From: an uncultured Verrucomicrobiae bacterium
GTDB taxonomy: Bacteria; Verrucomicrobiota; Verrucomicrobiia; Limisphaerales; Palsa-1400
Direction: 5' to 3'
DNA: 64,000 nucleotides
Assembly (NCBI GenBank): GCA_963764165.1
Contig: CAVXRD010000002.1
Location: 704,001 to 768,000, forward strand
The position numbers and the translations under genes are program-made. This document shows positions 27,265 to 52,796 of this stretch, in pieces. The notes below the pieces were generated by a model, which saw only the letters and a list, made by a program, of their open reading frames with translations, searched no databases and was not told the DNA's origin. The number at the start of each line of letters is the position of its first letter. The stretch's first letter is position 1.

Positions 27265-27301
27265 TGACCCTATCGGGTTGCAAACGGATAGACCGATCCA
27301 A

Positions 27302-28228: not shown

Positions 28229-28274
28229 ATTGCCGTCTCCATGCCCAGTGCCTATAAAATAAGAATTCGATAGA

Positions 28275-30727: not shown

Positions 30728-30760
30728 ACGAAGTTTTTAAATTTGTTCAGCGCCGGCGCT

Positions 30761-30789
30761 GGCCACTCACGATGTGGCCTTTTCTTTTT
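30761..30789 (+). terminator. Putative intrinsic terminator
   Basis: GGCCAC-TCACGAT-GTGGCC hairpin followed by TTTTCTTTTT. Confidence 0.5.
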
Positions 30790-30867
30790 GCGCCTGAAAC
30801 TGGAGCGCAAAGATTCGAGATTCAAAATGTTGCCCAATGCCCGCAATTCATTCTAAATTCTTGAGAG

Positions 30868-33113: not shown

Positions 33114-33131
33114 TGTCCGCGTCCGAAAGAA

Positions 33132-34343
33132 ATGCGCTTTCTTGACATAGCCGTTCATTGCCACGTGCCGCCTTTGGACGGCGCGGACCGGCGCGCCTGG
33201 GAGCTGTACAACGGCCTCGGCGAGACCGGCGCTGAGGGAGTTTTCATCGGGCGCACTGCCACAACGCGCACCGGCGGGGCATTGCGACAATATGTGCCCG
33301 ACTATTCCTGGCGGGATCGAAAGCTGTTTGCCGCGTCGCTTGCCCTGCTGACAGGACAAAGTTACTGGCACGTCAAAATGATCAGGCCGGGAGCGATGCG
33401 CCTCGTCGCAGACGCGCTGGCCGAAAAACCGGACGTCGTTCTGCTGAACCATCTTTACGCGATGCCGCTGGCGGATCCTGTTATCAAGAGTGGAGTCCCA
33501 CTGGTCGTCGACACCCATAATTACGATCCTGTTTTTTACGATGTCCTCGCCAAGGCTTCCACCAATCCGGGGCTGCGCCAGCTTTGCCGCCGCGCCATCC
33601 GCTTCTCGGAAAAATCCCTGGCGCGACTGCCGAAGGGAACGATTCTGGTGCATGTCAGCGAGGCGGATGCACAAAGATACCGCCAGCACCGGCCCGATTT
33701 GGAACATGCAGTCGTTGAAAATGGCGCTTCAATAAAGCCGCGACGGGAGGCAGCCGGACAAAAAAACAGCAAGCGCCCAGTATTGATGTTCGTTGGCAGT
33801 TTGTCCGCGCAAATGAATCAGGATGCGCTCGCCAATTTTGCCAGCCGATTCTGGCCCGCTTTGTCGGAGGTCGCGGAATTCCGCGCAGTCGGTTCCGGGC
33901 CGCCGCCCGCCATCGCCGCGCTTTGCGCGCGGCATGGATGGCAAATGTTCGCGGACGTTTCGGAAGAAAAACTGGACGAGCTGTACGCGGAGGCGGATTT
34001 TGCAATCCTGCCCTTTGCCTACGGCGAAGGAAGCAAATTGAAATTTTTCGAAGCCTGCGGGCGCGGGGTTCCGGTTCTTTCGACCCAAGCCGGATTGTGC
34101 GGGGTGGCCGATGATCCGCTGCCCGTGCTTGTCACCAAGAACGACGATCCGGCGATTTGGAAATCGCGCATCGCCGCCCGCGGCCAATTCACTGAGGCGG
34201 ACGTCCGGGATCTCATTGAATTCTCGGAACGCTATTCCTGGCCGGTGTTGGGCAAAAAATTGAGGGACGTTATGGACCAGGCCGCTTCCAAAACTCGCGC
34301 CGTTCGAGCCGAGACAGCAAGCGAACGGGTTTCGAGCCGCTAA
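33132..34343 (+). CDS. GT4-like glycosyltransferase
   Basis: VDTHN, VVENG, FVGSL and GSKLKFFEA...GVPV. Confidence 0.85.
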   Translation: MRFLDIAVHCHVPPLDGADRRAWELYNGLGETGAEGVFIGRTATTRTGGALRQYVPDYSWRDRKLFAASLALLTGQSYWHVKMIRPGAMRLVADALAEKPDVVLLNHLYAMPLADPVIKSGVPLVVDTHNYDPVFYDVLAKASTNPGLRQLCRRAIRFSEKSLARLPKGTILVHVSEADAQRYRQHRPDLEHAVVENGASIKPRREAAGQKNSKRPVLMFVGSLSAQMNQDALANFASRFWPALSEVAEFRAVGSGPPPAIAALCARHGWQMFADVSEEKLDELYAEADFAILPFAYGEGSKLKFFEACGRGVPVLSTQAGLCGVADDPLPVLVTKNDDPAIWKSRIAARGQFTEADVRDLIEFSERYSWPVLGKKLRDVMDQAASKTRAVRAETASERVSSR

Positions 34344-34361
34344 AATTACGTTCTAGAACCG

Positions 34362-35561
34362 ATGTTCACACAACTTCGCCGCATAACAAGTTCGGGAAAT
34401 TATATTCCGGAAATTGACGGAGTCCGTTTTGTCGCGATTGCGATGGTGTTGGTGGAGCATTTGCACCAGCGCATCCTTCGCGGTGTGGAGGCCCAATACC
34501 AGAGTTTTGTGGGGAGCACGGTGGATCGAATCCTTCTCACTTGCGGAGTGGGAGTGATGATTTTTTTCGCCCTCAGCGGTTATATACTCCACAGCATCCT
34601 GAGGAGTTCGCTCGTAAAAAGGGGCGCTCTCGATCTCAAGCATTACTACTTGCGCCGGGTTACGCGGCTTGAACCCCCCTATATCATCGTCACCACCATC
34701 ATTTTCACTGTGCTGACCCTTGGGCTCTACCACGGCTCTGGAAAATATCTTGGGCATGGGGACGTCCCGTATTGGGAAAGCTATGTCGCAACCATCTTCT
34801 ACTTGAACGGCTTGTTATTCGGCACGCCGCCGAGCGTAAATCCGCCTGGCTGGACGCTGGAGATAGAAGTTCAATTTTACATCATGGCGCCGCTGTTGAC
34901 CTTCTGCCTCCTCAAGATGAAATCCTGGCAAGCCCGAATAACGGTGCTTCTGGCCGCCATGGCTGCCTGGGGATTGTTTAAGGCCTACCTTGCCACGCCA
35001 AATCCCCACCTTAGTTACTCCCTGCTGCTGTGGATTCCGTATTTTCTGGTTGGTTTCATCGTGTTTGAATTGATCAACCGCAGTCCTAGAAAAGCCATAT
35101 TGCCGCCGGGAGTCATTGATTTTCTGGCCGTGGCCGCCTTGATCACGCTGCTATCCGCCGCCGGCCCTTGGGAGCAGGTGGAGCAATGCGCGTGCATCGG
35201 CGTATTTCTTTATGGCGCACTTGCCGGAAGCTGGCTGCGCCGACTTCTCCAATGGCGATGGCTGACAAACATTGGAGGAATGTGTTACACCATTTACCTG
35301 ATACATCTCCCGTGCATTGAGATTCTTGCCAAAGCAACCACCCATCTGAAGCTCAAAGTGCCCTACCTCGTTTATTTGTTTATCCAGGGATTGGTTGTCT
35401 TGCCGGCGGTGCTCCTCATTGCGACGGTTTTCTTTCTTCTCGTTGAGCGGCCCTGCATGGACAAGAACTGGCCGTTTAAGCTTTGGGCGTTTGTCAAATC
35501 AAGGGTGTCAAGTTCTCCGGCCATGGCAGCGCACGCAGCGCCAGAGCAGCTTGATAAATAG
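34362..35561 (+). CDS. Acyltransferase family 3 (OafA-like)
   Basis: IDGVRFVAI..V..H, GVMIFFALSG, RRVTRL, WTLEIEVQFY and YTIYLIH. Confidence 0.9.
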   Translation: MFTQLRRITSSGNYIPEIDGVRFVAIAMVLVEHLHQRILRGVEAQYQSFVGSTVDRILLTCGVGVMIFFALSGYILHSILRSSLVKRGALDLKHYYLRRVTRLEPPYIIVTTIIFTVLTLGLYHGSGKYLGHGDVPYWESYVATIFYLNGLLFGTPPSVNPPGWTLEIEVQFYIMAPLLTFCLLKMKSWQARITVLLAAMAAWGLFKAYLATPNPHLSYSLLLWIPYFLVGFIVFELINRSPRKAILPPGVIDFLAVAALITLLSAAGPWEQVEQCACIGVFLYGALAGSWLRRLLQWRWLTNIGGMCYTIYLIHLPCIEILAKATTHLKLKVPYLVYLFIQGLVVLPAVLLIATVFFLLVERPCMDKNWPFKLWAFVKSRVSSSPAMAAHAAPEQLDK

Positions 35562-35599
35562 GCTTCGCCGGCTCACAATGAGGCTCTCTTTTGGAAACG

Positions 35600-36709
35600 A
35601 TGAACCCGCGGCGAAATAATTTTGACCTGATTCGATTATTGGCGGCGCTCCAAGTCGTCGTGGGGCATGGTTTCCTCTTTTTCCACGTTCCCTGGCACAT
35701 CCCGCTTCTCGACCTGTTCCCCGGAGTGCCCATTTTCTTTTGCATTAGCGGTTTCCTCATCGCCAAGTCGGTCGAACGAAACCAGGGGCGGTTGAAGGCG
35801 TATTTTGAAGCCCGGATTCTGCGAATATATCCCGCGTTGGTTTTCTGTTCGACGCTTTGGCTGGCTTTGATGTTTGCCCTTGGCGTGTTTCAAGGTGTTC
35901 CAATGGTCAAAGTGGCAGTCTGGTATCTAAGCGCGGCGTTGGTGGGCGGAGCCAGTTACAATCCCGAATTTTTCCGCCATTTCGGCACAGGCGTCTGGAA
36001 CGGCGCGCTTTGGACTGTTTGCATCGAGATCACATTTTACATATTTTTACCCATGGTGTATTTGTGCGACCGATTCGGCCGCCGCGTTTTTAATTCGCTG
36101 GTGGCTGTGTTATGCTTGTCGTCATTCGCGCTCTTTATCGTTTTCGACGGACTGCATTTTGGAGAAACGAAGACCCATTCTGCCATCGATAAAATAGTCT
36201 GGTTTAGCCTGGTTGGAAATCTGTGGATGCTTCTTTTCGGCACATTGATTTACCGCTTCTTTGATCAGCTTCGCCCGATTCTAGCCGGAAAAGTGCTATT
36301 GTGGCTGGCGGCTTATCTCCTTTTGGCATTCCTTCAGCCCGTGACTTCTGCGGGAGGATCCGCGAGCCCGGTTATCGGCGCCTATTTGCTCGTGCAGCGG
36401 GTAATACTGGCGCTGTTGACTGTTTCCGCGGCCTACTCATTCACCTCTCTGAGTGATTTGCTGCTCAGGGGAAACGACATTTCCTATGGCATCTATATTT
36501 ACCACATGCTGATATTTAATTTGTTTGTGCAGTACGGACTGGCCAAGCCACAGTATTTTCCAATCGCCCTTGCAGGGGCGCTGCTGTGCGGGGCTTTGTC
36601 CTGGTATTTTTTGGAAAGCCGGATGTTGAAATTGAAAAAGACCGCTCCCGACACGCGCGCTCCGAATGCAAATGCCCCAATCGCTGTCGGAGGCGGAACG
36701 GCGGCGTGA
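35600..36709 (+). CDS. Acyltransferase family 3
   Basis: NNFDLIRLLAALQVVVGH, FFCISGFL, RILRIYP, NGALWTV.IE..FY and DISYGIYIYH. Confidence 0.9.
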   Translation: MNPRRNNFDLIRLLAALQVVVGHGFLFFHVPWHIPLLDLFPGVPIFFCISGFLIAKSVERNQGRLKAYFEARILRIYPALVFCSTLWLALMFALGVFQGVPMVKVAVWYLSAALVGGASYNPEFFRHFGTGVWNGALWTVCIEITFYIFLPMVYLCDRFGRRVFNSLVAVLCLSSFALFIVFDGLHFGETKTHSAIDKIVWFSLVGNLWMLLFGTLIYRFFDQLRPILAGKVLLWLAAYLLLAFLQPVTSAGGSASPVIGAYLLVQRVILALLTVSAAYSFTSLSDLLLRGNDISYGIYIYHMLIFNLFVQYGLAKPQYFPIALAGALLCGALSWYFLESRMLKLKKTAPDTRAPNANAPIAVGGGTAA

Positions 36710-36748
36710 CCTGCGATTTGCCTGCGCCCCAGACTGCCTCTTAGTGCC

Positions 36749-37951
36749 ATGCACGCCATTGTCCATGATTACGCCGGGCACCCGTTCCAGGTGCAGTTGA
36801 GCCGGGAACTGGCGCGCCGCGGCCATTCCGTTGTCCACGCGTATGCGGGCGGCCTGCTCACGCCGCGGGGAAGCCTGGCCAGGACTCCGGGCGATCCTGC
36901 CTCGTTCGAATCTGCCGAGGTGGCGATGAATCCCCATTACCGCCGCGACAAGTATAAATTCATTCGCAGGCGCAAAATGGAAGTCGAGTATGGAAACGAA
37001 ATCTCGGCCTTGATCCGGCGGAAAAAACCGGACTGCGTGATCTCCGCCAACACTCCGACGGAGCCGCAGATGAAGATCGCCCAAACTTGCGCGGAATTGG
37101 GAATTCGCTTTGTTCCGTGGATTCAGGATTTTTACAGTGTGGCGGTGGCCAAGCTGGCCGCAAAGAAACTGCCCGTCATCGGCAGCATCATCGCCGCCTG
37201 GTACCGGCGGCTCGAGATTCAGACCTTGGGCAAGGCGGCGGCCGTCGTATCCATCACGGACGACTTTCTGCCCATGCTCCGCGAATTTGGGGTTCCGCGG
37301 GAGCGCATTGTCACGATCCCGAATTGGGCGCCGCTCGATGAGCTTCCATTGCAACCGCGCAAAAACGCCTGGTCCGCCGCTCAAGGATTCGACGGGAAAT
37401 TTGTGTATCTTTACTCCGGCACGCTGGCCATGAAGCACAACCCGGATTTGTTGAAGCAATTGGCCCTGAAGTTTCGCCACGATGATGCGGTCCGGGTCGT
37501 CGTCATTTCCGAAGGGCCAGGCTCCGAGTGGCTCGCGGAACAGAAGAAGTCGCCGGGCTTGGAAAATCTCGTATTGGTTCCCTTTCAGCCCTTCGACGTG
37601 ATGCCGTTTGTCATGGGGTCGGCAGATGTTTTAATCGCGATTCTCGAACCGGATGCGGGAATTTTTTCGGTTCCTTCCAAGGTATTATCCTACCATTGCG
37701 CAGGCCGGCCCTTGCTGGCGGGCATGCCATCCCAGAATTTGGCTGCTCGGATTATCACGGAAAATCGCACCGGCTTCTGCACCGCGCCGGACGACATCGA
37801 CGGTTTCATCAAGGCGGGCGAGACGCTTTATAAGGACGCGGCGCTCCGGCAGGATTGCGGATCGCGCGCCCGAAAATACGCGGAAGACAATTTCGATATC
37901 GCGAAAATAGCGAACAAGTTCGAGGATTGTCTCCAAGGCCGCAAAAATTGA
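36749..37951 (+). CDS. GT4 glycosyltransferase (WcaI/WbuB-like)
   Basis: WIQDFY, IPNW, YSGTLAMKH and VPSKVLSY..AGRP. Confidence 0.88.
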   Translation: MHAIVHDYAGHPFQVQLSRELARRGHSVVHAYAGGLLTPRGSLARTPGDPASFESAEVAMNPHYRRDKYKFIRRRKMEVEYGNEISALIRRKKPDCVISANTPTEPQMKIAQTCAELGIRFVPWIQDFYSVAVAKLAAKKLPVIGSIIAAWYRRLEIQTLGKAAAVVSITDDFLPMLREFGVPRERIVTIPNWAPLDELPLQPRKNAWSAAQGFDGKFVYLYSGTLAMKHNPDLLKQLALKFRHDDAVRVVVISEGPGSEWLAEQKKSPGLENLVLVPFQPFDVMPFVMGSADVLIAILEPDAGIFSVPSKVLSYHCAGRPLLAGMPSQNLAARIITENRTGFCTAPDDIDGFIKAGETLYKDAALRQDCGSRARKYAEDNFDIAKIANKFEDCLQGRKN

Positions 37952-38092: not shown

Positions 38093-39304
38093 CTACCGCA
38101 GGTGGGAAAAGATCTCCTTCATTTGAGGGAATGTGTTGGCGAACAAAAAGAAAGTGGCGGCGCAATAGCAGAAGGTGATCACCACGGCGGCCGCGTGAAT
38201 CCACGGATTTGCGTTATATGCCTTGAAGCCGTCACGCCCCAGCCAGCGCTTGAGGCCAATCGTGTAATAGTGATGGGTTACAAAGCCAAGCGCGTGGGCG
38301 GCGCCGAAGGCGGCATAATTCCAGCCCACCCCGTGCCAGATGCCCACCAGGAGAAATACCACCACAATGGTTAGCGCCACGGCGTGATTGACGCTTTTCG
38401 GCCCCAAGACGCCGACCAGCCATTTTGACAAAGGGGTAAATACGACATCGCGCATGTACTGCGAAAGGGTGATATGCCAGCGATTCCAAAAATCCTTGAG
38501 ATTTCGCGCGGCGATGGGCTCGTCGAAATTCTCGTCCACGGGGAAGCCCATCAAGCCGGCCAGCCCAATCGCCATATCGCAAAAGCCGGAAAAATTGCAG
38601 TAGAGGTAAAGGTAGTAAAAAATGGCGGCCACCTGCAAATCCACCCACGGATGAAAATGATCGTCAAACAAAAGATTGGCATAGATTAGCTGGAAGCAAA
38701 CGTTCCCGATGAATTTATATTTTACAAAACCGATCAAGATGCGCAGCGCAGCGCGGCCCCAATCGATCACGGGCGGCTGATCCCCGAAGGCGCGCTGATA
38801 CTGGCTGAGCGGGCTGATTGGCCCCACCGTCAAGGTGGGCACAAAAAAGCAAAAGCCCGCGTACTTCCAGAATCCCGGCACCGGGACCGAGCCGCTGCGA
38901 ACCTCCAGCACCAGGCGGCTGCTCCGAAAAGCCATGTAGGAAAGGCCGATCAAAAGCGGTCCGTAGCGCAGGACGCTTCCCGAATAGACAGCAGAGCTGG
39001 TCGGAACGTAACGAACCAAAACCAAGGCCAGCAGCGGAACAGAAAAAGCAATCCACGGCAGCCAGCCTCCTTTTCCAACGAAGACGCGCAGGGCCGCATA
39101 CTGCAATGCGATCAGCGCCACATAAGCCGCAAAGGCCAAAGCATGCTGGCGGTCCTCCTTGTAAAACCAAAAAAAATAGACTGCGGCCACATTCAAAATG
39201 CCGAAAGCAGCCTCCCTCCACAGGCCCCGGAGCTTTTTCATGACCAGGCATCCAACCAACAGGTAGGTCAAAATCTCAACCCGCAAACTGATTTGTTGAT
39301 GCAT
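38093..39304 (-). CDS. MBOAT O-acyltransferase (DltB/AlgI-like)
   Basis: GLSYMAFR, LTVGPI, LYCNFSGFCDMAIG, ENFDEP, DFWNRWHITLS and LLVGIWHG (catalytic His). Confidence 0.93.
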   Translation of the reverse strand: MHQQISLRVEILTYLLVGCLVMKKLRGLWREAAFGILNVAAVYFFWFYKEDRQHALAFAAYVALIALQYAALRVFVGKGGWLPWIAFSVPLLALVLVRYVPTSSAVYSGSVLRYGPLLIGLSYMAFRSSRLVLEVRSGSVPVPGFWKYAGFCFFVPTLTVGPISPLSQYQRAFGDQPPVIDWGRAALRILIGFVKYKFIGNVCFQLIYANLLFDDHFHPWVDLQVAAIFYYLYLYCNFSGFCDMAIGLAGLMGFPVDENFDEPIAARNLKDFWNRWHITLSQYMRDVVFTPLSKWLVGVLGPKSVNHAVALTIVVVFLLVGIWHGVGWNYAAFGAAHALGFVTHHYYTIGLKRWLGRDGFKAYNANPWIHAAAVVITFCYCAATFFLFANTFPQMKEIFSHLR

Positions 39305-39308
39305 TTCC

Positions 39309-39440
39309 TCAGAATCCTCCGTAAACGATCTTGATGCCGCTGAACAGGTCCGCGGAAGCGGCTATTAACAGAGCGGTGAAAAGGCACAACAGAACAACCG
39401 CCGCGTAAATCAATGTCTCAAAATTTAACTTGCTCTTCAT
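39309..39440 (-). CDS. 43-aa DltX-like single-TM acyl-shuttle peptide (absent from ORF track)
   Basis: Hand translation MKSKLNFETLIYAAVVLLCLFTALLIAASADLFSGIKIVYGGF*. It overlaps the upstream gene end, stops 4 bp before the MBOAT ATG, and ends in a hydrophobic-hydrophobic-Y-x-x-F hexapeptide. Confidence 0.85.
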   Translation of the reverse strand: MKSKLNFETLIYAAVVLLCLFTALLIAASADLFSGIKIVYGGF

Positions 39441-40506
39441 AAAGCTTTGCCAGGGAAGGCGCCATCACGCGCGTGAAAAACTCCTGTCCGTTCTGATTTA
39501 AGTGTTCGAAATTATAAAAGAACCTCGGCACATCGTCCTGAGATATCCCCTTGAATAAGTGGCTGGGTGCAATCCCCATCATAATCAAATGGGAGCCGAA
39601 TCGATCCGGCCAAAAAGTCGGCTCGTCGATTACCGGCCTGCCTGTTTCCTCCCCTTGCGGCATGTGAAGGAAAACCAGTTTAACATGGTGCTGCTCCGCC
39701 AGGGCGCCGATCTTTTTCGCAAAGGCATCCTGCATGGTCGAAATGGGGGAGGTCGAGAAGCGGAACGCGTCCTTCGTGGCGCTCGAATAAACGCAAACAT
39801 CCGTTTCCTTCGCCTCGGGCTCGGGCGTGAAATCCTCGAATCGCCCGCCGGATCTCAGACGAATCGCCAAGGATCCCAAATGATCTGCCGGGCTCGCCAC
39901 ATTGGTGAAAGATCCCCAGCCAATCTCCGCCGACGGAATAACAGGGAGATTCGTTCGCGCCAGACTCAACAGGCTTCGCGGCATCCCAAGAATGGAACTG
40001 GAATAAAACGTTACCTTCGATGCGAGTGTGAGGCCGTCCAGATCCCCGGCATTATCCGCGAACCGGAAAAGAAAGGGGGCCCGCCTGTGAGCCACGTTGC
40101 CGCCGCCTGTGCTGCAATCGCAAATGACGATCATCCGCGCCCGGCGATGCTCAAGCAAATCTTTCATGATGAAGTACATCGCATCATAACCGGGCCCGTT
40201 CCAGCAGAGCGACCTTGCCACCGCCTTGCGCCCCAGGCGCTCGGAGAGCTGTTTTTCCACCTGCGGAACATCGATGCCCCACCACATTCTTGACGAACCC
40301 ATAAAGGCCACGTCGATATCCCCTTTCTCCTCAAAAATCTGATCGTGAAGATATGGGAACGAGCCCGCTCCCCAGGACAGGGATGAATAAATCTCTTCGC
40401 GCGAGGGCAAAAAGGAGCGCCGCATCACGACAGGCAGCAAAAGAATCGCTGCCAGGATGAAGACAAACGCGCCGGCTTGGCGAGTCGAGGAGAAAGCAGG
40501 CCTCAT
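39418..40506 (-). CDS. DltD/AlgJ-like membrane-anchored SGNH-type acyltransferase
   Basis: N-terminal TM helix; VAFMGSS nucleophile block; C-terminal FYNFEHLNQNG. ATG at 40506 overlaps the ACP stop (TGATG). Confidence 0.7.
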   Translation of the reverse strand: MRPAFSSTRQAGAFVFILAAILLLPVVMRRSFLPSREEIYSSLSWGAGSFPYLHDQIFEEKGDIDVAFMGSSRMWWGIDVPQVEKQLSERLGRKAVARSLCWNGPGYDAMYFIMKDLLEHRRARMIVICDCSTGGGNVAHRRAPFLFRFADNAGDLDGLTLASKVTFYSSSILGMPRSLLSLARTNLPVIPSAEIGWGSFTNVASPADHLGSLAIRLRSGGRFEDFTPEPEAKETDVCVYSSATKDAFRFSTSPISTMQDAFAKKIGALAEQHHVKLVFLHMPQGEETGRPVIDEPTFWPDRFGSHLIMMGIAPSHLFKGISQDDVPRFFYNFEHLNQNGQEFFTRVMAPSLAKLYEEQVKF

Positions 40507-40751
40507 CAGCCTCCCTCCGCGCGCTTGAGAATTAAATCCGCAAATTCCCCGATGTTCTTCGTCGTTTCCACTTCTCCAACTCGAAAGCGGATGGAAAATG
40601 CCTTTTCCACCGAGACAACGAGCGAGATGTGAATAAGTGAATCCCACTCGGGCACGTCCTTGGCCGAAAGCGCAGGAGTCAATACCACCGGCTCCAGAAA
40701 TACGTTGTCGAAAACACCTTGCAATTTCGCGATAACGTCAGATTGATTCAT
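40506..40751 (-). CDS. Acyl carrier protein
   Basis: 81 aa, acidic, DVPEWDSLIH phosphopantetheine site, VEKAFSIRF. Confidence 0.92.
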   Translation of the reverse strand: MNQSDVIAKLQGVFDNVFLEPVVLTPALSAKDVPEWDSLIHISLVVSVEKAFSIRFRVGEVETTKNIGEFADLILKRAEGG

Positions 40752-42606
40752 AAGCTCGGGAGGTAATTTTAATATGGGTGGGAATGGGCGCTGCGCTCTC
40801 CAGCGCCAACTCAAAAGTTCGGCGCCCCGGATTCTCCGCGACCAAGGCAAAGCCCATGCGGGTATAAAAATCCCGCACCATCTCATTCTTGGCCGTAGGC
40901 AAATAGATGCCCTCAAGCCGGGTGCAATCTCTCTTCTTCGCCAATCGCACCAATTCATTGAGAACTTCTTCTTCGACCTGCCGTTTAAGAACCCGGCAGC
41001 TCATAAGCCATGTGTCGATCTCCAAAGTCGAGCCGGAGCGGTGCCCAACGACAATGGAAATCAGTCCGTGATCCCCAAAGCGATCCTTGAGACGGACTGA
41101 GAATCCAACATAATCAGGATCGAGCATGAGCGCCTCGATTTCGGCCTCGGTGCGGCGCCGGGTGGTCAAGTTGAATTGATTGCTCTTGTTGATGAGCTGC
41201 GCAAGCCGCGGAACATCGAGCTTCGTGAATTCGCTGATCGCCGCCTCCATCTCGAGCGACTTCAGATACGAATCCATGTCCGTCACGGAAGCTTCAAGCG
41301 CCTTGCGCTGGGCGTCAGAACGGTATTGGCCCGTGCGCTCGGCGTCCTCGGAAGTGATGCTGCGCGGCTCGAACAACCGGCAATCGGCCAGCTGGCTGAC
41401 GTAGCCGGCCGGGTCCGGTCCAAGCAGAATGGTCGTCACTTCCGGGGCAAACTGGCGCACAATTTCAATTTCGGCCGGGTTGTCATCCACGAACACAAAG
41501 CTATCCAGCCCCAGGTTCAATTCCGCCGCCATCCTCCGCAGATTGTCCGACTTGGGATCCCAGTTGGCCTTGAAGGAAACAATATCGCTCATCCGCAAAA
41601 TCATTTCAGGATGTTTCTCAAACGCTTCCGCCGCCCTGGCATGGTCATTCTTGCTCACGACGGCCAGCAAGACGCCGCGCTGTTGAAGCGAGGCGATGTA
41701 TTTCTGAAATGCTTTGAACGCTTCGCCGCGCGGAGAGGTATCGCCCAGTTCAATGCCCTCCAGTCCATCATCCGCCACCACGCCGCCCCAGAGGGTGTTA
41801 TCCAAATCAAGCGCCAGCACTTTCTTGGGCGAGCGTTTGAGCGAGGCAATCAGATGGGCCGTTTCACGCGCAAATTCCACCAGCAACGCCGAGGAGCAAG
41901 GCTGTTTGCTTTCGAACCAGCCGCGCTCATCGCGCGCGTTCAAGCCGCCGCAGCGATTCGCCAAAAATTCCAGGTCGCACATGTGGACGTAGGCCGGGGC
42001 GTTGAGCCCCAGCTCCATGTTGACCCATTTGCGGAAATTCCAATCCGAACCCATCGTTCTTCCCCGGAACGCGCCCAGGTCATGGTGGGCGGGCAAAATG
42101 AAATTGGAAACGATCACCTCAGCGCCCGTCCGATTATGAGCCTGCCGGGCCAGCTCCAGAATTGACTGCGCCACCTGGCTGGCGGCGGCTTGCTGCGCTT
42201 CCCGCGAATCCGTCAGGCGCCCCTGATAGCGGCACCTCTGCTCGGAGGGCATCAGCAAAACAACTTCCGGCGCAAAAGAATAAAGGCCGCTGGCCTCATC
42301 CATGATTTCAGAAATATAGTTGTCAAAATCGCCCCGCCAAAACTCGCAGGGAGTCCCCTGCATCTCGCACAAGTGCTCGAGCAATTCGTGGAAGGGATAA
42401 AGACTGTAACCGCCCACGATGGCCAATTTTAACTGCTTTCGCAAAGGTGTCGGCCGGGCAATTTCGCGCGAGTAGGCCTTTTTCCGCCAATTCGACAACG
42501 AAAACAGTTCGTCAAAATATTTTGCCGTGCGGGTGTAATCTTCCAGGCAGCCCCAAACCGCAGGATCGCGCTGCAAAAGAAGGGTTTTGATGTTGCCTAT
42601 TTCCAT
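40738..42606 (-). CDS. FkbH-like HAD-IIIC protein (glyceryl-ACP loader) with N-terminal extension and C-terminal GNAT-like part
   Basis: LALDLDNTLWGG, VSKN, NWDPKS, FVDDNPAE, KSNQFN, DRFGDHG and LMSCRVL. Confidence 0.93.
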   Translation of the reverse strand: MEIGNIKTLLLQRDPAVWGCLEDYTRTAKYFDELFSLSNWRKKAYSREIARPTPLRKQLKLAIVGGYSLYPFHELLEHLCEMQGTPCEFWRGDFDNYISEIMDEASGLYSFAPEVVLLMPSEQRCRYQGRLTDSREAQQAAASQVAQSILELARQAHNRTGAEVIVSNFILPAHHDLGAFRGRTMGSDWNFRKWVNMELGLNAPAYVHMCDLEFLANRCGGLNARDERGWFESKQPCSSALLVEFARETAHLIASLKRSPKKVLALDLDNTLWGGVVADDGLEGIELGDTSPRGEAFKAFQKYIASLQQRGVLLAVVSKNDHARAAEAFEKHPEMILRMSDIVSFKANWDPKSDNLRRMAAELNLGLDSFVFVDDNPAEIEIVRQFAPEVTTILLGPDPAGYVSQLADCRLFEPRSITSEDAERTGQYRSDAQRKALEASVTDMDSYLKSLEMEAAISEFTKLDVPRLAQLINKSNQFNLTTRRRTEAEIEALMLDPDYVGFSVRLKDRFGDHGLISIVVGHRSGSTLEIDTWLMSCRVLKRQVEEEVLNELVRLAKKRDCTRLEGIYLPTAKNEMVRDFYTRMGFALVAENPGRRTFELALESAAPIPTHIKITSRAYESI

Positions 42607-42841: not shown

Positions 42842-45838
42842 TCATTGCTGCATGACACGGTAGAAGAGACGATTGCTCACGCCGCTGCCGCTGTCGGTAA
42901 AATTGAAAAAAGGGCCGCTGAACACGGCGGATGGGATGCCGCTCCAATGGATGAGATCGGTCGAGGATTGCACAACGTAATTCGTGCCCGCAACGGCGTT
43001 GGTGACTGAGAAGTGAATCGGTCCATGCGGCGGGCCGCCGAGAGAATCGGCGACAATCGTCGGCGGCTGGTAGAAAAAGAGGGAAATGACAATGTTTCCA
43101 CCCGGACTGTTCGCCGCGCCGTCGACGTCAATGTGGTAGGCGGTGTTCACCGTGACAGGGAAATCGACATGGCTTGTGAACGTGTTGTGGAGGTTGGCGT
43201 CGAAGGACGCGACAGCAGTCAAATCGTCGAGCGCGAAGCCGGTAAAAACGGCCATGCGATTGTAGAAATCGCTGGTGACATTGACGCGCAGCCATCCGTT
43301 GGTCGGCGCGGTCCAAACCCACCAAACCGTGCGGCCCGCCGCCGGCGCGTAATCGACGATGCCGACGTTGGCGCCGAGGAGCGGTTCACCCGGCTCGGCG
43401 GAGGCATCGACGTTGTTGTTGGTGCCCGAGGCGATGTATCCGCTCAGGACGGCCGCGTTGGAGAAGCTGTCGCTGGCCGGAGGCGTGCCGGTGCCGATAT
43501 TTAAATTGATCGTGCCGGAGGCTGCGTTGTAGCCGAGCACGGCGATGTGATACGTAACTCCCGCCTGGGCAAGAATAGGCAAAACGCTGTTGGTTGGATT
43601 GGCGACGGGCGCACCGACACCGCCCAAGGTTGCCAGCGTGTCGTTGGTGAAAACTTCGAGGTCGGTAAAGAACGAACTGCCGAGCGTGCTGATGACCACG
43701 TTGCCACTGACGGGCGCAGTCCAACTCCACCACACCGAGCGGTCAGCCCCGTAATCGGACGGCTCGCCCGGCTCAAGGGTGGTGTTGGTGTTGGAGCCCG
43801 TGGCGCTGACGGGAAATCCTGTCAAAACAATACTGTCCGCAAAGTCATCGTTGGGCGGCTGCGAGAATGTCAGGGTCAATGAGATGCTGCCCACAGACGA
43901 ATTCTCGCCATCGACGGAAATCTGGTAGGTTGTCCCGGCGCTGACAGGGAAACGGACATCTTCAGCAGTGACCTGCGCATTGGCGTCGTAGTTGGAGGCC
44001 ACCGTCTGAAGTGTGGCCAGCGTGTTGTTATTGTAGACGGAGATCAATGGGCTGATGCCGCTGTAGGCGCCCGAAACCTCGAGCTTGCCGTTGGCCGGAG
44101 CCGTCCACGACCACCAGAGAGAATGAGCGGCGGGAGCATTGCCGTGCGGGGGCTCGCCGGGCTCCGCGGTGGCGGCGGAATTGTTAGCTTGAACGGTCAT
44201 GCGCGCCTCGGAGAGAGCAACACGATTGGCGTAATTGTCATTGCCGTTGATCGATCCCGTTTCGCTGAATTCAGCCAGCAGCGCGTCGGACCAGCCATCA
44301 CCGTAAATCGGTTGGAAGGCATCGGGTGTCGTGGGATAATACGCTGCGAATGAATACGGCGAATCGATGGCCAGCCCGGTAGAGCCAATAACAAAGACAT
44401 TGCCATTGCCAACGCAGGCCACGCCGCCGCAGCCGACCTGATAACTGTTGGCCAGATACCGAAGATAAAGATTGGTGGAACCTGTCGGATCGAGCTTTGA
44501 GACGTAGGCGGCGAAATTGCCTGAAAGCGTGTTGGCGGGGTCTGTTCCCACCGGCGCATCGTAAGACGACGATTGTCCGCAGACATACGCGTTGCCGGAA
44601 GGATCCAGCGCCAACCCGGCGAGGGTCGGGTAGATGTAGCCCTGGGACGCATACACCGGTTCGCGCATGTCCTCCGAGCCGCTGCCGCCGAGATAGGTCG
44701 CGTAGCGCAATGTCGTTCCTGTGGGATCGAGTTTCGCAACGAAAGCGTCCCAATTTCCGCCGCCGTAATTTGGCTGCGGGGCGTTGGTCGTGACGGGAAA
44801 ATTCGTCGCGGACGTCTGGCCAAAAATGCAAGCGCCGCCCGCCGAATCAACCGCTACGCAGGCCGCGATGCTGGCCGCGAGATCATCGCCCGGATCGGAG
44901 CTGAGGCCGTCGCCCAGCAGCGTTACATACTGCAGCGTCCCGAAGCCGGGAGAAAGTTTGGCGATGAAGGCTTTCGTCGGTCCGTTGGTTCCGATTTGAG
45001 TAAAGGCGGCGGCGGCCGGGAGATTGGTCGACGAGGTCTGTCCCGCGATAAATACGTTGCCGGACACATCCAATGTCATGCCCATCCCAAAATCGTCGCC
45101 CTCGCCTCCCAGGAAAGTCGATGACAGCAGATGCGATCCCGTGGCATCGAACTTTGTGAGGAACATGTCGAAACCGCCGCCGAGATTCGTTTGCAACGCG
45201 TCCGGCGTCACAGGGAAATTGGTCGAGTCCGTCGAGCCAAAGACAATCGCCTCACCATTGGAATTGACCGCGATGGCGCGCGCGGCGTCCGCGCCTGATC
45301 CTGAAAGGTAGGTGCAGTAAGCGAGACTCGTTCCGTCCGCGCTGAGTTTCGCGACGAACGCCTCCAGATTGCCCCCAAGGCCGTTAACCTGAAAGGCGTT
45401 GGTCGTCGGCAAGAGGTCTCCGGCGGTGCCGGCGATATAGGCGCAGCCCGCAGCGTCCACCACAATGGCTCGGGCGCTGCACCATGGAACCAGTGTGATG
45501 TAGGAAAACGCCTTGGTTGTTGGATTGAACTTGGCGACAAACGAACCCTGGGTGGCGTTCGTTCCCAAATAGCCGCTCGCGATACGGGCCGTAAATGGGA
45601 AATTCGTGGCCGATGACGAATAGCCTGTCAAATAAACAAACCCATCCGGCCCCGTGGTGATGGCCGCGCCGGTTTCACCGTTATCCCCGGGCGTGCCGCC
45701 CCCGAGGTAAGTTGAGTAGGCCAGGGCCGGCATCGTGGCGTTTTGGGCCTGGATCGGATGCGTGGGCGCAGCGCTGGCGAAAACCGCCAAGGCGAGAGCG
45801 GCAATTTGTCGTGGGCGGTAAATGGGAGCCAAAGCCAT
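42842..45838 (-). CDS. Secreted SBBP-type beta-propeller protein with three repeated beta-sandwich domains and the shared C-terminal domain
   Basis: Signal peptide; repeated YSTYLGG / STNFP / AFVAKL blades; three ND.F...EPGEP...WWxWTAP repeats; C-terminal YVVQSSTDLIHW...FYRV. Confidence 0.85.
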   Translation of the reverse strand: MALAPIYRPRQIAALALAVFASAAPTHPIQAQNATMPALAYSTYLGGGTPGDNGETGAAITTGPDGFVYLTGYSSSATNFPFTARIASGYLGTNATQGSFVAKFNPTTKAFSYITLVPWCSARAIVVDAAGCAYIAGTAGDLLPTTNAFQVNGLGGNLEAFVAKLSADGTSLAYCTYLSGSGADAARAIAVNSNGEAIVFGSTDSTNFPVTPDALQTNLGGGFDMFLTKFDATGSHLLSSTFLGGEGDDFGMGMTLDVSGNVFIAGQTSSTNLPAAAAFTQIGTNGPTKAFIAKLSPGFGTLQYVTLLGDGLSSDPGDDLAASIAACVAVDSAGGACIFGQTSATNFPVTTNAPQPNYGGGNWDAFVAKLDPTGTTLRYATYLGGSGSEDMREPVYASQGYIYPTLAGLALDPSGNAYVCGQSSSYDAPVGTDPANTLSGNFAAYVSKLDPTGSTNLYLRYLANSYQVGCGGVACVGNGNVFVIGSTGLAIDSPYSFAAYYPTTPDAFQPIYGDGWSDALLAEFSETGSINGNDNYANRVALSEARMTVQANNSAATAEPGEPPHGNAPAAHSLWWSWTAPANGKLEVSGAYSGISPLISVYNNNTLATLQTVASNYDANAQVTAEDVRFPVSAGTTYQISVDGENSSVGSISLTLTFSQPPNDDFADSIVLTGFPVSATGSNTNTTLEPGEPSDYGADRSVWWSWTAPVSGNVVISTLGSSFFTDLEVFTNDTLATLGGVGAPVANPTNSVLPILAQAGVTYHIAVLGYNAASGTINLNIGTGTPPASDSFSNAAVLSGYIASGTNNNVDASAEPGEPLLGANVGIVDYAPAAGRTVWWVWTAPTNGWLRVNVTSDFYNRMAVFTGFALDDLTAVASFDANLHNTFTSHVDFPVTVNTAYHIDVDGAANSPGGNIVISLFFYQPPTIVADSLGGPPHGPIHFSVTNAVAGTNYVVQSSTDLIHWSGIPSAVFSGPFFNFTDSGSGVSNRLFYRVMQQ

Positions 45839-45896
45839 AGATATTAAGCATGGGCAAAACGAGATTGCACTGTCAATTGATAAGCAACGAACGTGT

Positions 45897-46066
45897 CGGG
45901 TGTGAGACAAAGCTCTTCATCCCGCTTTGTCTCCCAGCGCCGTAGAGGCGGGAAACCTTTGTAGAAACGATTACCAAGAGATTTCAAGCTCTCCGTCAGG
46001 AGCGGCACCTGCCGCGCCTCTGGCGCTTGGCGGCTATGCGGCATGAGGAATTCCGTCTCACACCCG
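45897..46066. repeat. 12-bp inverted repeat pair in the divergent intergenic region
   Basis: CGGGTGTGAGAC (45897-45908) and GTCTCACACCCG (46055-46066). Confidence 0.5.
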
Positions 46067-46265: not shown

Positions 46266-46697
46266 ATGGAAACCGCGCGCATTATTGATTTTGCCAATAT
46301 CTCCGAAGGGTCGGAATACGAGCACGACTACGTCATCACCACCGCGGTATTCGAGAATTTCATGCGCGCCTTCGGGGATCGCAGCCCGGTGCATGTCGAC
46401 GCCGAATATGCCAGAGGGTGCGGCTTTCTCGACGCGGTCATGCACGGTGCGATATTGAATGGGTTTGTATCGCATTTTGTCGGCATGATTTTTCCCGGCG
46501 CCAACAGCCTGCTCCTGTCCGTCGAGCTGCGCTATTTGCAGCCGTCCTACCTGGGGGATGCTTTGCGTCTCCATGCGAAGGTCGCACAGAGGCAGGAAAC
46601 GGCCCGCGTTGTCGTCCTTCACGTCCGATTTCAAAATCACACGCGCGGCGTTATGGTTGCCAACGGGCGCATCCAAGTGAAAGTCAGGGGAGCGTGA
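46266..46697 (+). CDS. MaoC/PhaJ-like hotdog dehydratase
   Basis: FGDRSPVHVD.EYA...F...VMHG (catalytic Asp/His), FPG and LRYLQPSYLGD. Confidence 0.88.
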   Translation: METARIIDFANISEGSEYEHDYVITTAVFENFMRAFGDRSPVHVDAEYARGCGFLDAVMHGAILNGFVSHFVGMIFPGANSLLLSVELRYLQPSYLGDALRLHAKVAQRQETARVVVLHVRFQNHTRGVMVANGRIQVKVRGA

Positions 46698-47404
46698 GCC
46701 GCCACACTGTCATTATCACGGGGGGCACCAAAGGCCTTGGACTGGCCACCGGCCTCGCATTTGCCCGCGCGGGGCACAGGGTCATTGCCTGGTACGCAAA
46801 GGACGAGGTGGCAGCCGAATCGGCCCGGACAGAACTGCTCCAACTCTGTCCTGATTCCCTCACACTGAAGCGCGACGCCCGGTTCGAGAACGCTGATTTT
46901 TGGACCCTTCCGGAAATCACGTCGGCCGAGAGCCTCGTTTTGATCAACAATGCCTGGGGTTCGGTCGCACCCCGCCCGTTCCATCTATCGCCGTGGGAAG
47001 ACTGCGAATCCGCTTTGATGTCTGGATTGAAAGCGGGTTGGGAATGTTCCCGGGCGGTGGTGCGTCCGATGGCCAAAGCGGGCCGGGGAGCCATCATCAA
47101 CGTGCTGACGACCACAGTGCATGGGCTTCCGCCGAAGGGATTCGCCGCCTACGCCACCGCCAAACACGCCCTGCGCGGCTTGACGCTCTCGCTCGCCTCC
47201 GAGTATTCGGCACGGGGAATTCGCATCTTTTCAGTTTCACCCGGCCTCATGCCGACGGCCCTCACCGCGGGCTGGGATCCGCGATTCATGGAGGCGGCGC
47301 GCCAGCTCGGGCAAACCAGCGACCCGTCTGCGGCCGGGCAACGGATTCTTGAATTGACCAATTCGCCGGAGACACTCGGGCGCGGTGAGGATTATTGCGT
47401 TTAG
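46694..47404 (+). CDS. SDR-family (FabG-like) ketoreductase
   Basis: ITGGTKGLG, LINNA, YATAK and VSPGLMPT; GTG start overlaps the MaoC stop (GTGA). Confidence 0.88.
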   Translation: MSRHTVIITGGTKGLGLATGLAFARAGHRVIAWYAKDEVAAESARTELLQLCPDSLTLKRDARFENADFWTLPEITSAESLVLINNAWGSVAPRPFHLSPWEDCESALMSGLKAGWECSRAVVRPMAKAGRGAIINVLTTTVHGLPPKGFAAYATAKHALRGLTLSLASEYSARGIRIFSVSPGLMPTALTAGWDPRFMEAARQLGQTSDPSAAGQRILELTNSPETLGRGEDYCV

Positions 47405-47469: not shown

Positions 47470-47581
47470 ACATGGGCGGGATTTCTCTGCCATAACCCCA
47501 AAAAACAAAACGAGCGACATGGGGTCGCTCGTTTTGCGGAAATGCATTCCCGATTAAGGGCGCATCAAGGTTGGCTCGCGC

Positions 47582-49774
47582 CTACGCTTTGACGGAGGTC
47601 TTTTCGGCCCCCTTTTCTGAAGTCTTCTTTTCCTCTTTGCTGCCGTAGTGGCCGTAGCCGTAACCGTGGTAGTAAGAGTAGTAGTACGCGCCTCCCAGAC
47701 GGCGATGCGGGAGCAGATTCAAAACCACCCCGCTCAACGGGGCGCCGGCCCGCTTAAGCAATTGCACGGCGCGCTCCACACCTTTGCGGGAGGTCTTGTA
47801 ACCGTGAACCACCAGCATGACGGTCTGGACTCTGTCGGCCAGCAAAAGAGTGTCGCTGACCGGAAGGACTGGCGCGGTGTCAATAATGACGCGGTCGTAG
47901 TGGGCCAGGCAGTCCTTGAGCAATTGGGTGAAATCAACCTGAGAGAGCAATTCCGATGGGTTTGGAACGGACGTGCCGCTGGGCATCCAGCTAAATTTGG
48001 CGATTTCACCGTGCTGGATGCATACTTCCTCCAGCTTTTTCCGGCCCAATAAATAATCAGTCACACCGGGGAGGATGTGACGCTTGTCGGTGAAAAAGTT
48101 TTCCACCATCGGACGGCGCAAATCCATGTCGATCAGCAGAACGCGAAGCCCCTGCTGGGCCAGGCTGGCGGAAAAATTCAACGCGGTAAACGTTTTGCCT
48201 TCGCCTGGCAGTGAGCTGGTGAAAAGATATGTCCGGCGATCCTTCTCTTTTCCGAGCATGGAAACAGTCGCGCGCAGCGTGCGAAACACTTCTGCGCCGG
48301 ATGAATTGGAGTCGCCGGAGGCCACCAATTTGGCCCCCTCTTTGGGCAGCTTTGGAACCGTCCCCAACACGGGCAGTGCGAGATACTGCTCCACTTCGTC
48401 CACCGTCCTGAACGAGGTGTTCATGGCCGATAGCATAAAGCTTAGGCCAAACCCAAGCGCGAATCCGCCGAAGATCGCCAGGGCAAAAATGGCCTTGATC
48501 TTGGGCGAGGCTGGCAATTCAGGAATCAACGCCGGCTGAACCAGCTTGATGCGTTCAGGAGTGATTTTTTCCGCCACGGAGGTTTCGCCAAGGCGCTTGT
48601 AGAGCGCGTCGTATTGAAGCTTGTTCGCTTCAACCTGCCGGACGAGCACGTTATACTGCACCGCGGCATCGCTCAATTGCATCGCATTGCTTTCCGCGCT
48701 CTTTTCCTCGAGTTCCAAACCTTCCTTGGCGGTCTTGGCATTTTCGTAAGCAATCCGCAGGCCTTCTTGCGTCCGCGCCCGCGCGCGCAGCACGGTGGTG
48801 GCCAGTTGAGCCTTCAGCGCCTTCACCGATTCAGCAGCCTGGATATATTTCGGATGCTTTTCCTTATAGCGAAGACGGATCAACACAAACGAGTCCTCAG
48901 CGCGCTGAACTTCGCTGGAAGTTTGGACCACATCCGGATCAGTTGAAATCTGCGAATAAGCCATCAACGCCTCGATGTTGGTCGACATCTTCATCGCGTC
49001 ATTGTAAGCGCCCTCAGCTTGAACAAACGCGGCTTTGCTTTGGGTCAGGCGAGCACTGATGTTTTGCAATTGCGGGGTGACGATGTTCTGGTTTTCCTGC
49101 AGCGAGATGGTGCCATTCGTCCTCCGATAGTTTTGCAGATTCGTTTCCGACATTTCCAATGTCGCGCGGGCTTTGTCTGCCTCAAGCTTTAGAAACCCGC
49201 TCGCTCCGATGGTGGTGGCGCGCTGCATGGAGGCATCCTGCCCGAGATAGCTGTCCACCAAAGAGTTTGCCAGATCCGCAGCCAGGGCAGGACTCGTGTT
49301 TCGCACAGCAATATCAATCAAGCGAGTATTCCGGCGCAGCGTGGTTTTGACGTTTTTCGAAAACTCTGTGATGATTTCCTCGCGCGACACGATATTGGAT
49401 CCGTTGGTCACAGCATAGCCTTGCGCCGGGAGCAGATGATTGGTGATCAAAACCTGTTCCAGCAGCACAGGGTTGCAAAGCTTTTGAACAATGGTGTTCA
49501 AGACGTCCTGGCTTTGGGCGTCCGCATGCACGACAGCTTCGGCATCCATGATCTTGGCGTCCTGTTGTTCCACTTGAACCGTGCTCACCGCCTCATAGAT
49601 TCGGGTGGCGTGCTTGACGTAGAGCGCAGCGGCCACGACACAAAGGACAACGCAGGTCAGGATCAACCAGCCTTTATCCAGAAGCAGCCGCACCACCCCA
49701 TGCAAGTCCATGGACGAATGCGGCGTGCGAGCCTCCTGCTGTGGATTAAGGTCGAGAGGGTCGAGATTTGTCAT
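47582..49774 (-). CDS. wzc: Polysaccharide co-polymerase / BY-kinase (Wzc/GumC)
   Basis: Two TM helices with coiled-coil periplasm; EVFRTLR, GEGKT Walker A, IDMDLRRP, IIDTAP and tyrosine cluster YYYSYYHGYGYGHY. Confidence 0.93.
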   Translation of the reverse strand: MTNLDPLDLNPQQEARTPHSSMDLHGVVRLLLDKGWLILTCVVLCVVAAALYVKHATRIYEAVSTVQVEQQDAKIMDAEAVVHADAQSQDVLNTIVQKLCNPVLLEQVLITNHLLPAQGYAVTNGSNIVSREEIITEFSKNVKTTLRRNTRLIDIAVRNTSPALAADLANSLVDSYLGQDASMQRATTIGASGFLKLEADKARATLEMSETNLQNYRRTNGTISLQENQNIVTPQLQNISARLTQSKAAFVQAEGAYNDAMKMSTNIEALMAYSQISTDPDVVQTSSEVQRAEDSFVLIRLRYKEKHPKYIQAAESVKALKAQLATTVLRARARTQEGLRIAYENAKTAKEGLELEEKSAESNAMQLSDAAVQYNVLVRQVEANKLQYDALYKRLGETSVAEKITPERIKLVQPALIPELPASPKIKAIFALAIFGGFALGFGLSFMLSAMNTSFRTVDEVEQYLALPVLGTVPKLPKEGAKLVASGDSNSSGAEVFRTLRATVSMLGKEKDRRTYLFTSSLPGEGKTFTALNFSASLAQQGLRVLLIDMDLRRPMVENFFTDKRHILPGVTDYLLGRKKLEEVCIQHGEIAKFSWMPSGTSVPNPSELLSQVDFTQLLKDCLAHYDRVIIDTAPVLPVSDTLLLADRVQTVMLVVHGYKTSRKGVERAVQLLKRAGAPLSGVVLNLLPHRRLGGAYYYSYYHGYGYGHYGSKEEKKTSEKGAEKTSVKA

Positions 49775-49823
49775 ATAATGTCTGCGTATATCGGCAATTG
49801 CGGTTCAATAATAATGCTCAAGC

Positions 49824-50444: not shown

Positions 50445-50619
50445 AGATAAACAACTAACAGCGTGGAATTATATACGCCGCGCGGATTATAGCAAGTTTT
50501 TTCTTACTCTCTTACCCGTGTTTTCCCTAGTGCCGATACCCCATATTAATTTCCCCGAGAAAACAACGGACCTGCTGGGCGGACGAGGTGCCGCGGTAAG
50601 CAAATTGTTTCCTTCAATT

Positions 50620-51130: not shown

Positions 51131-51135
51131 TCGCA

Positions 51136-52629: not shown

Positions 52630-52796
52630 TCTGGAGAGTTCAACGAACCAGACTGCGAGCGCAAAGTAAAGATGAATTGGCCAGCGGGCCTCCGCAGGCG
52701 CCGGACAAAATTATTCTGCCGCTGTGTTTCGCTGAAGGTGGCAGAGAACTCTCGCCTCTGACGGACGATCGAATCGAGGACTTCGACCGCGCCTGC

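Follow-up and report, generated by a model that had tools for sequence, protein, structure and literature searches.

In a contig of an uncultured Verrucomicrobiae bacterium (GTDB Palsa-1400), a five-gene cassette very probably exports a three-carbon (C3) acyl group, derived from an FkbH-type loader, by a relay that resembles the Dlt system. The cassette lies at 38093-42606 of a 64,000-nt stretch of DNA (CAVXRD010000002.1, positions 704,001-768,000; hereafter the window), where five minus-strand open reading frames (ORFs) encode the FkbH protein, an acyl carrier protein (ACP), a membrane-anchored SGNH-fold protein, a microprotein and an MBOAT (membrane-bound O-acyltransferase). Together with two further genes, encoding a MaoC-type dehydratase and a short-chain dehydrogenase/reductase (SDR), they would form a Dlt-like relay in which a lactyl group is exported onto a surface polysaccharide; judged from sequence, structural modelling and analogy, we lean slightly toward this seven-gene reading. 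The seven genes are as follows.

40738-42606, minus strand: FkbH-type loader, long form (622 aa; TIGR01686)
40506-40751, minus strand: ACP with a WDSL motif (81 aa)
39418-40506, minus strand: membrane-anchored SGNH-fold protein, DltD-like (362 aa; AlphaFold2/Foldseek)
39309-39440, minus strand: single-helix microprotein ending in IVYGGF (43 aa)
38093-39304, minus strand: short DltB-like MBOAT (403 aa; PF03062)
46266-46697, plus strand: MaoC-type hot-dog dehydratase (143 aa; PF01575)
46694-47404, plus strand: SDR ketoreductase (236 aa; PF00106)

The five cassette genes are real and translationally coupled. The FkbH and ACP genes overlap by 14 nt, the ACP stop and the SGNH start share one base, the SGNH and microprotein genes overlap by 23 nt, and a gap of 4 nt separates the microprotein gene from the MBOAT gene. 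These coordinates bear out an earlier note on this DNA, which had described five overlapping or abutting minus-strand genes and had read them as a Dlt-like operon with an FkbH-like protein in the position of DltA. The latter assignment is upheld by the TIGR01686 match of the loader and by the lack of an AMP-binding protein among the five operon genes; the Dlt-like architecture as a whole is supported, at the level of sequence and model, by the FkbH/ACP motifs, the SGNH fold, the short MBOAT without a Tyr tail and the separate microprotein. The analogy with Dlt is not one-to-one as the note had it, since the MaoC-SDR pair at 46266-47404 probably also takes part. Export of glyceryl or a derivative, as proposed there, is retained as far as a C3 acid is inferred; given the MaoC-SDR linkage, unmodified glyceryl is less likely than lactyl.

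For comparison, GTDB genomes were scanned with the FkbH query, and the best 80 of 573 confirmed stretches were taken as FkbH loci. FkbH, ACP, SGNH and MBOAT were all matched (a complete cassette) in 43 of these 80 loci, and in 42 of the 57 with at least 50% FkbH identity; several of the loci lacking the full set are short contigs, and most of loci 58-80 pair a distant alphaproteobacterial FkbH with an ACP and have no MBOAT. With a microprotein gene found in 41 of the 43, the comparative genomics that the earlier note had called for speaks for a conserved cassette. Records carrying it are titled Verrucomicrobiota, Acidobacteriota, Polyangiaceae, Armatimonadetes, Obscuribacterales and Magnetococcales, and the closest FkbH relatives (72-74% identical) are in records titled mostly Verrucomicrobiota. 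Cultured carriers of the microprotein-type cassette or its core are Edaphobacter aggregans DSM 19364 (L034), Silvibacterium bohemicum S15 (L045) and Acidobacteriaceae KBS 146 (L005). The distribution is patchy: in a separate sample of 400 other genomes of the order, used for orthologue counts, FkbH has an orthologue in 7 and MaoC in 3, and an MBOAT orthologue (judged by score) was found in one of 30 other genomes of the family, split across contigs. Among five genomes with an MBOAT-less FkbH locus, three have the orthologous MBOAT elsewhere, so the scattered parts tend to share one genome.

The loader scores 324.9 bits against TIGR01686 (cut-off 146.65) and comprises FkbH_N, HAD and C-terminal domains, with an N-terminal PF21211 match below cut-off. 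Residues D267-x-D269, K352, D374-D375 and S536-C537-R538 are kept in 70 of 70 aligned homologues, and we take D267, D269 and C537 to be catalytic. The invariance of the HAD phosphatase motifs argues for dephosphorylation. The loader also matches PDB 3slr (E 7e-53); this protein, the uncharacterised BF1531 of Bacteroides fragilis, spans the N-terminal and HAD domains, and no other relative of the long FkbH form has a solved structure. The ACP has no Pfam match at 0.01 and gives weak NCBIfam ACP matches (E 0.027), while its orthologue in L001 (77% identical) matches ACP models at E 1e-5. W36-D37-S38 is kept in 67 of 67 ACP homologues, which suggests Ser38 as the predicted phosphopantetheinylation site; two phosphopantetheinyl transferase genes are present in the genome outside the cassette. 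In starter modules of polyketide synthases (PKS) and non-ribosomal peptide synthetases (NRPS), FkbH uses 1,3-bisphosphoglycerate to load glyceryl-ACP, according to an excerpt of PMC7489565. By analogy with this family chemistry, the loader is predicted to transfer glycerate from 1,3-bisphosphoglycerate to give glyceryl-S-ACP on the Ser38-phosphopantetheine. An NRPS-embedded FkbH domain at G000:C3 720738-731555 was considered as a linked component and rejected (34% identical, within a 3605-aa protein). The NRPS cluster around it (720738-734848) adjoins a gene resembling cyclic-peptide-type ABC exporters, as judged from its N-terminal sequence.

The MaoC and SDR genes were overlooked in the earlier note. 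They are divergently oriented and placed 3.7 kb past the FkbH start, behind an SBBP-repeat gene, and the SDR start overlaps the MaoC stop (GTGA). The MaoC protein scores 40.1 bits against PF01575 (cut-off 27) and matches PDB 5cpg at E 1.9e-14; the PF00106 match of the SDR was obtained on a longer reading from 46418. The motif D38-x4-H43 is present in 12 of 12 linked MaoC copies and Y153-x3-K157 in 11 of 11 linked SDR copies. Orthologues of both genes directly follow MBOAT in 11 of the 43 complete cassettes; the window MaoC and SDR are 66% and 63% identical to the pair after MBOAT in G499. A fused MaoC-SDR of a second lineage adjoins FkbH-ACP in L024, L061, L071, L084 and L131. All three MaoC orthologues among the 400 genomes adjoin an FkbH or MBOAT cassette, and two of the three genomes are among the seven with FkbH (hypergeometric P 8e-4, an overstated significance since kin are not independent); the window MaoC is the sole MaoC match in its genome. 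Judged by this linkage, the MaoC-SDR pair belongs to the system. A search for MaoC fused into PKS modules yielded one unrelated fusion among 556 longer-protein candidates and is weak evidence either way. In the biosynthesis of FR901464 and lankacidin, dehydratase-ketoreductase (DH-KR) proteins turn glyceryl-S-ACP into lactyl-S-ACP, as described in the cited part of a review (PMC4765723). By this polyketide precedent and the gene linkage, MaoC is predicted to dehydrate glyceryl-ACP to pyruvoyl-ACP, which the SDR would reduce to lactyl-ACP. Together, the linkage and the precedent favor lactyl over glyceryl as the group that is probably exported in this genome.

Other cassettes may tailor the acyl group differently. 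Of the 43 complete cassettes, 11 carry a VOC gene, nine of them without MaoC-SDR, and the cassettes of Sinorhizobium meliloti and Rhodobacteraceae SC52 carry one as well; a query with the cassette VOC found none in the window genome. The VOC protein resembles methylmalonyl-CoA epimerase (TIGR03081, below cut-off) and, by analogy, would perhaps act as an alpha-epimerase that makes L-glyceryl from D-glyceryl. L-glyceryl is a gellan substituent according to the title of a reference in PMC4432689. In the plasmid FkbH search (205 records matched), no Sphingomonas record was among the matches listed. In G499 (L124, 4572-4952), two small hydrophobic ORFs ending in YYRQF and FIYTLF lie about 2 kb downstream of MBOAT-MaoC-SDR; they may be additional shuttle-like microproteins or belong to an unrelated family.

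The MBOAT scores 60.2 bits against PF03062 (cut-off 27) and 185.2 bits against the DltB model TIGR04091, below its cut-off of 375. Its only PDB sequence matches are two DltBs (6bug, E 3.5e-33; 8jem, E 5.6e-33). H277 and H324 are invariant (45/45), H324 aligns with the WHG motif of DltB, and none of the 45 short MBOATs has a Y-x-x-F C-terminus. In a FastTree phylogeny (45 of 65 collected MBOATs, 385 columns), the clade of the cassette MBOAT has three Firmicute DltBs as its sister group (support 0.885), and the fused-tail MBOATs fall elsewhere; the midpoint root is weak and we claim no direction from it. The long MBOATs found in other FkbH-ACP cassettes carry the tail motif themselves, ending in PPFLYQGF in S. 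meliloti pSymB, FIYFNF in Rhodobacteraceae SC52 and GFIYANF in G744. As judged from sequence, FkbH-ACP is paired with at least two MBOAT lineages.

In the cassettes with short MBOATs, the motif is found at the end of the microprotein instead. Hydrophobic ORFs of 34-55 aa ending in Y-x-x-[FMLY] are present in all complete cassettes except L042 and L045, with the consensus end VYQGF (46 rows; L013 and one match that is an MBOAT tail were left out). The window genome has 46,832 ORFs of 34-55 aa; among the 748 of them with a hydrophobic helix, this microprotein is the only one that ends in Y-x-x-F. Together with its position and with the complementary distribution of the motif between microproteins and MBOAT tails, this genome-wide null supports the microprotein independently of its selection by motif. 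It matches no Pfam or NCBIfam model; this includes Pfam DltX (PF12459), which S. aureus DltX matches at 2e-14. Its third match in the ESM Atlas, with a score of 0.91, is a cluster in which DltX makes up 45% of the members; recognition is just below threshold. The C-terminal motif Tyr is the acyl shuttle in DltX and PatA, as stated in an excerpt of PMC12148441. The fusion of the microprotein motif to the MBOAT tail in the sister cassette of S. meliloti supports a similar role, and we predict from sequence that the microprotein is a DltX-like acyl shuttle acting through Tyr40. By the precedents of Dlt and PatA, His324 of the MBOAT would pass the acyl group to Tyr40 on the periplasmic side.

The earlier note had suggested an SGNH-like protein at 39418-40506, and on this fold AlphaFold2 (AF2), Foldseek and VIA agree. 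The protein has one hydrophobic segment (residues 10-28), and its AF2 model has a pLDDT of 91.9. The top eight Foldseek hits are DltD structures (3bma, 6pfx; best E 5.6e-4, TM 0.37-0.39). VIA, run on Foldseek's 1000 chains, places the protein at Z 9-11 to SGNH enzymes generally, with DltD tied on Z and aligned over more residues than the others (236-248). Neither Pfam (including DltD PF04914) nor NCBIfam gave a match. Ser72 in a G70-x-S72 motif is present in 49 of 50 aligned proteins and His335 in 50 of 50; they are predicted from this conservation to be the nucleophile and the base. In the last step Ser72/His335 would take the acyl group and esterify a sugar hydroxyl of a Wzx/Wzy-made glycan encoded around the cassette.

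The following features of the window bear on the acceptor.

27230-37951, plus strand: GT2 glycosyltransferase, Wzy_C protein, three GT4 glycosyltransferases, epimerase, oxidoreductase and two AT3 acyltransferases (Pfam)
42842-45910, minus strand: SBBP-repeat protein, probably secreted (1022 aa; PF06739)
47582-54311, minus strand: Wzc, Wza, Wzy_C protein and priming glycosyltransferase (Pfam)

The cassette is convergent with the plus-strand glycosyltransferase/Wzy-like/AT3 run, which is a candidate source of the acceptor glycan. Wzc-Wza (47582-50444) is about 5 kb away and a Wzx-like flippase (15179-16672) about 21 kb away. The earlier note had placed the cassette in the middle of a Wzx/Wzy locus; more exactly it lies between polysaccharide operons, and the accompanying statement that PKS/NRPS genes are lacking holds for the 28 window ORFs scanned with Pfam, a scan that left a few long ORFs at the window ends outside. 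Elsewhere, a glycosyltransferase or Wz gene was found in 27 of the 36 complete loci of at least 12 kb, a lower bound, versus one of 16 distant MBOAT-less FkbH loci. Such neighbors point to a surface glycan and not to which one. Exopolysaccharides are known to carry lactyl and glyceryl substituents, according to an excerpt of PMC4432689.

A number of observations weigh against the lactyl relay or parts of it. The MaoC-SDR pair is 3.7 kb off on the opposite strand, behind an unrelated gene, and in 23 of the 43 complete cassettes the fetched flank shows no VOC and no such pair, which means that somewhere the core works without MaoC-SDR; one of the 23 (L024) has the fused MaoC-SDR. Two of the five genomes with FkbH only are without an orthologous MBOAT. 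As for the shuttle, the invariance of Tyr40 is partly circular, the peptides having been chosen by that motif; the hhalign comparison of microprotein and DltX is not significant (E 0.067); and the motif is V-Y-x-G-F as compared with F-x-Y-x-x-F of DltX/PatA, the first Phe being absent. The SGNH profile finds no PDB sequence, the hhalign profile comparison with DltD is not significant (E 0.31), and VIA places small SGNH esterases as high as DltD. The Asp of the D-x-x-H motif (present in 37 of 50) is Asn332 in the window protein, and the 50-row alignment has no invariant Asn at the position of SGNH block III. In the glycan comparison, the same loci supplied part of the reference set, and most of the control loci belong to a single clade.

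Among the alternatives, the one to be taken most seriously, though unlikely, is that the same relay delivers unmodified D-glyceryl, with MaoC-SDR detached, weakly expressed or acting on part of the pool. The divergent position of the pair and the 23 cassettes with neither the pair nor VOC nearby would fit this, as do the glyceryl esters known on gellan (PMC4432689, in excerpt). However, both genes are intact with their catalytic motifs, the window MaoC is this genome's only MaoC match, and its three orthologues in the 400 genomes all adjoin cassettes. We consider it improbable that the C3 group goes to lipopolysaccharide core or O-antigen, a protein O-glycan or a glycolipid rather than to a Wzx/Wzy polysaccharide. 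Cassette and glycosyltransferase run differ in orientation, the window has two Wzy_C (ligase/O-oligosaccharyltransferase-like) genes, and GT9 heptosyltransferase-like and GT-C (PMT_2) genes are neighbors in other loci; against this, the acidobacterial copies are inside priming-glycosyltransferase/Wzz/Wzc/Wzy clusters, and the characterised MBOAT-SGNH pairs described in the excerpt of PMC12148441 act on polymers.

Slightly less probable still is a different FkbH-derived group as the cargo (pyruvoyl, 3-phosphoglyceryl or a C3 unit with further modification), or a 3-hydroxyacyl group made by MaoC-SDR from a CoA ester. The long FkbH has an N-terminal domain with no assigned role (PF21211, below cut-off), and MaoC looks like R-specific enoyl-CoA hydratases and the SDR like FabG. 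The invariant HAD phosphatase motifs speak against such a product, as do the absence of a thiolase or FabH-like gene among the annotated recurrent neighbors and the fact that MaoC and SDR travel with FkbH-ACP as a pair or a fusion. Quite improbable is an operon with two functions, in which acyl-ACP would supply an acyltransferase that is cytoplasmic or of the AT3 type, with acetyl-CoA as the MBOAT's donor as in PatA. Two AT3 genes do lie just across the junction, AT3 recurs in eight loci, FkbH+ACP occurs without MBOAT in many Alphaproteobacteria (in Niveispirillum with a WcbI-type acyltransferase), and MBOAT, microprotein and SGNH genes occur without an adjacent carrier in L087/L088. Yet all five genes are translationally coupled and co-occur across several phyla, the MBOAT clade is sister to the ACP-using DltB, and MBOAT is retained in three of the five split genomes.

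The lactyl relay is best described as an MBOAT-SGNH relay variant whose donor branch is of polyketide type; the cassette is real and conserved, and it would work like Dlt without being a Dlt member. Using the Dlt mechanism as given in excerpts of PMC12148441 and PMC13653941 as the basis of comparison, the cassette shares with it a carrier protein, a short MBOAT without a Tyr tail, a single-helix microprotein ending in Y-x-x-F and an anchored SGNH protein. Unlike Dlt, it has an FkbH loader and no AMP-binding DltA among its five genes, its MBOAT is below the DltB cut-off, no protein of the cassette matches Pfam DltX or DltD, and no DltC model matches the ACP at E <= 1. It adds MaoC-SDR or VOC tailoring genes, and its context is Wzx/Wzy glycan genes in a diderm, whereas Dlt serves teichoic acid. 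PatAB, AlgI/J/X and WssH also combine MBOAT and SGNH proteins with a Tyr-x-x-Phe shuttle and envelope polymer targets; they use acyl-CoA and a shuttle fused to the MBOAT, whereas the cassette has a carrier and a separate microprotein. MBOAT-SGNH systems other than Dlt are without carrier protein and microprotein in the excerpt of PMC12148441 (2025). The resemblance to FkbH-ACP/DH-KR starter modules (FK520/tetronate; FR901464, lankacidin) is one of linkage and motifs only, with a hot-dog dehydratase and an SDR accompanying FkbH-ACP; in contrast to those modules, no ketosynthase, FabH or condensation domain was found among the scanned window genes, and the acyl-ACP has a transmembrane relay as its partner. 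A dlt-type operon on a Klebsiella electrica plasmid (L100) has the same order of DltD, microprotein (ending in FEYQKF) and short MBOAT, but has an AMP-binding loader and a Pfam-positive DltD, and its MBOAT is outside the cassette clade in the tree. There the DltD, an unannotated 40-aa microprotein, MBOAT, AMP-binding protein and ACP genes lie between insertion sequences (NZ_CP041250, L100 3541-7593).

In the open-access full texts searched, which exclude most subscription papers and patents, we found no account of an MBOAT that is fed by FkbH/ACP and has a polysaccharide as its target. The only two of these texts with both FkbH and MBOAT concern aeruginosin-type clusters; the aeruginosin/suomilide clusters were rejected as a parallel, as FkbH is an NRPS starter domain there and the MBOAT acylates a glycoside (PMC10143770, in excerpt). 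The carrier-fed acyl export route has so far been worked out only for D-alanine. The cassette pairs a carrier and a microprotein with a loader and tailoring enzymes from polyketide starter-unit chemistry. If the lactyl relay is correct, it would provide a genetic source for lactyl/glyceryl esters of exopolysaccharides, for which no pathway was found in the open-access literature searched, and an acyl-ACP-fed MBOAT usable for engineering polysaccharide esters.

Tentatively, the cassettes may be members of a widespread glycolysis-fed platform that attaches C3 hydroxy acids to surface glycans of bacteria by way of a carrier protein and a Tyr shuttle, and in which swappable tailoring sets the product, D-glyceryl without tailoring, L-glyceryl with VOC and lactyl with MaoC-SDR. 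It is likewise conceivable, with a similar degree of doubt, that the DltB-like branch of this platform uses a free microprotein as its shuttle, and the AlgI-like branch, to which S. meliloti pSymB belongs, a fused tail. The reading gives specific predictions for cultured strains, among them D-glycerate for E. aggregans, whose fetched flank showed no tailoring gene, and L-glycerate for S. meliloti (fused type with VOC). In that species (L081 7525-13404, strain ml46 pSymB, CP140883; L082, strain 1021), the cassettes consist of VOC, long MBOAT, a 409-aa protein, ACP and FkbH near capsule export genes. The 409-aa protein, annotated as 'TonB-dependent receptor', is SGNH-like by motif only (GGST and DPGH) and is unmatched by the SGNH profile and Pfam. 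FkbH matches 40 Sinorhizobium records; it is in two pieces in the record of strain 1021 and whole in that of 2011, which may be a lesion or a sequencing error, and the ACP of 1021 is not frameshifted. In the Niveispirillum plasmid (L084 7800-12280), FkbH, ACP, a WcbI-family acyltransferase and a fused MaoC-SDR occur with no MBOAT; this set may make the same lactyl ester by a cytoplasmic route. Two loci of relatives (L087 6670-9158 and L088 6206-8677; G012 and G029) have a short MBOAT, a microprotein ending in QTSKFIYIDF and SGNH with no adjacent carrier or loader; they look like an AlgI/PatA-type system with the tail split off as a free shuttle.

Returning to the window, the SBBP-repeat protein between FkbH and MaoC-SDR falls into a separate cluster when the proteins of the 80 FkbH loci are grouped, and is probably outside the system. 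It lies in the glycan region and has the C-terminus RLFYRVMQQ; a 2703-aa PA14/Fn3/Ig protein (19153-27264), probably secreted, is also found in this region. A promoter/terminator scan was uninformative (5 and 15 sites versus 3.9 and 14.7 in shuffled sequence). Between the convergent SDR and wzc genes, a 14-pair hairpin followed by a T run (47505-47537) is a likely terminator. Gene duplications were also observed in other loci: a second SGNH-microprotein-MBOAT set in tandem in L014 (8001-15381), three tandem SGNH genes in L017 (3632-7224) and two in L018 (10193-12571).

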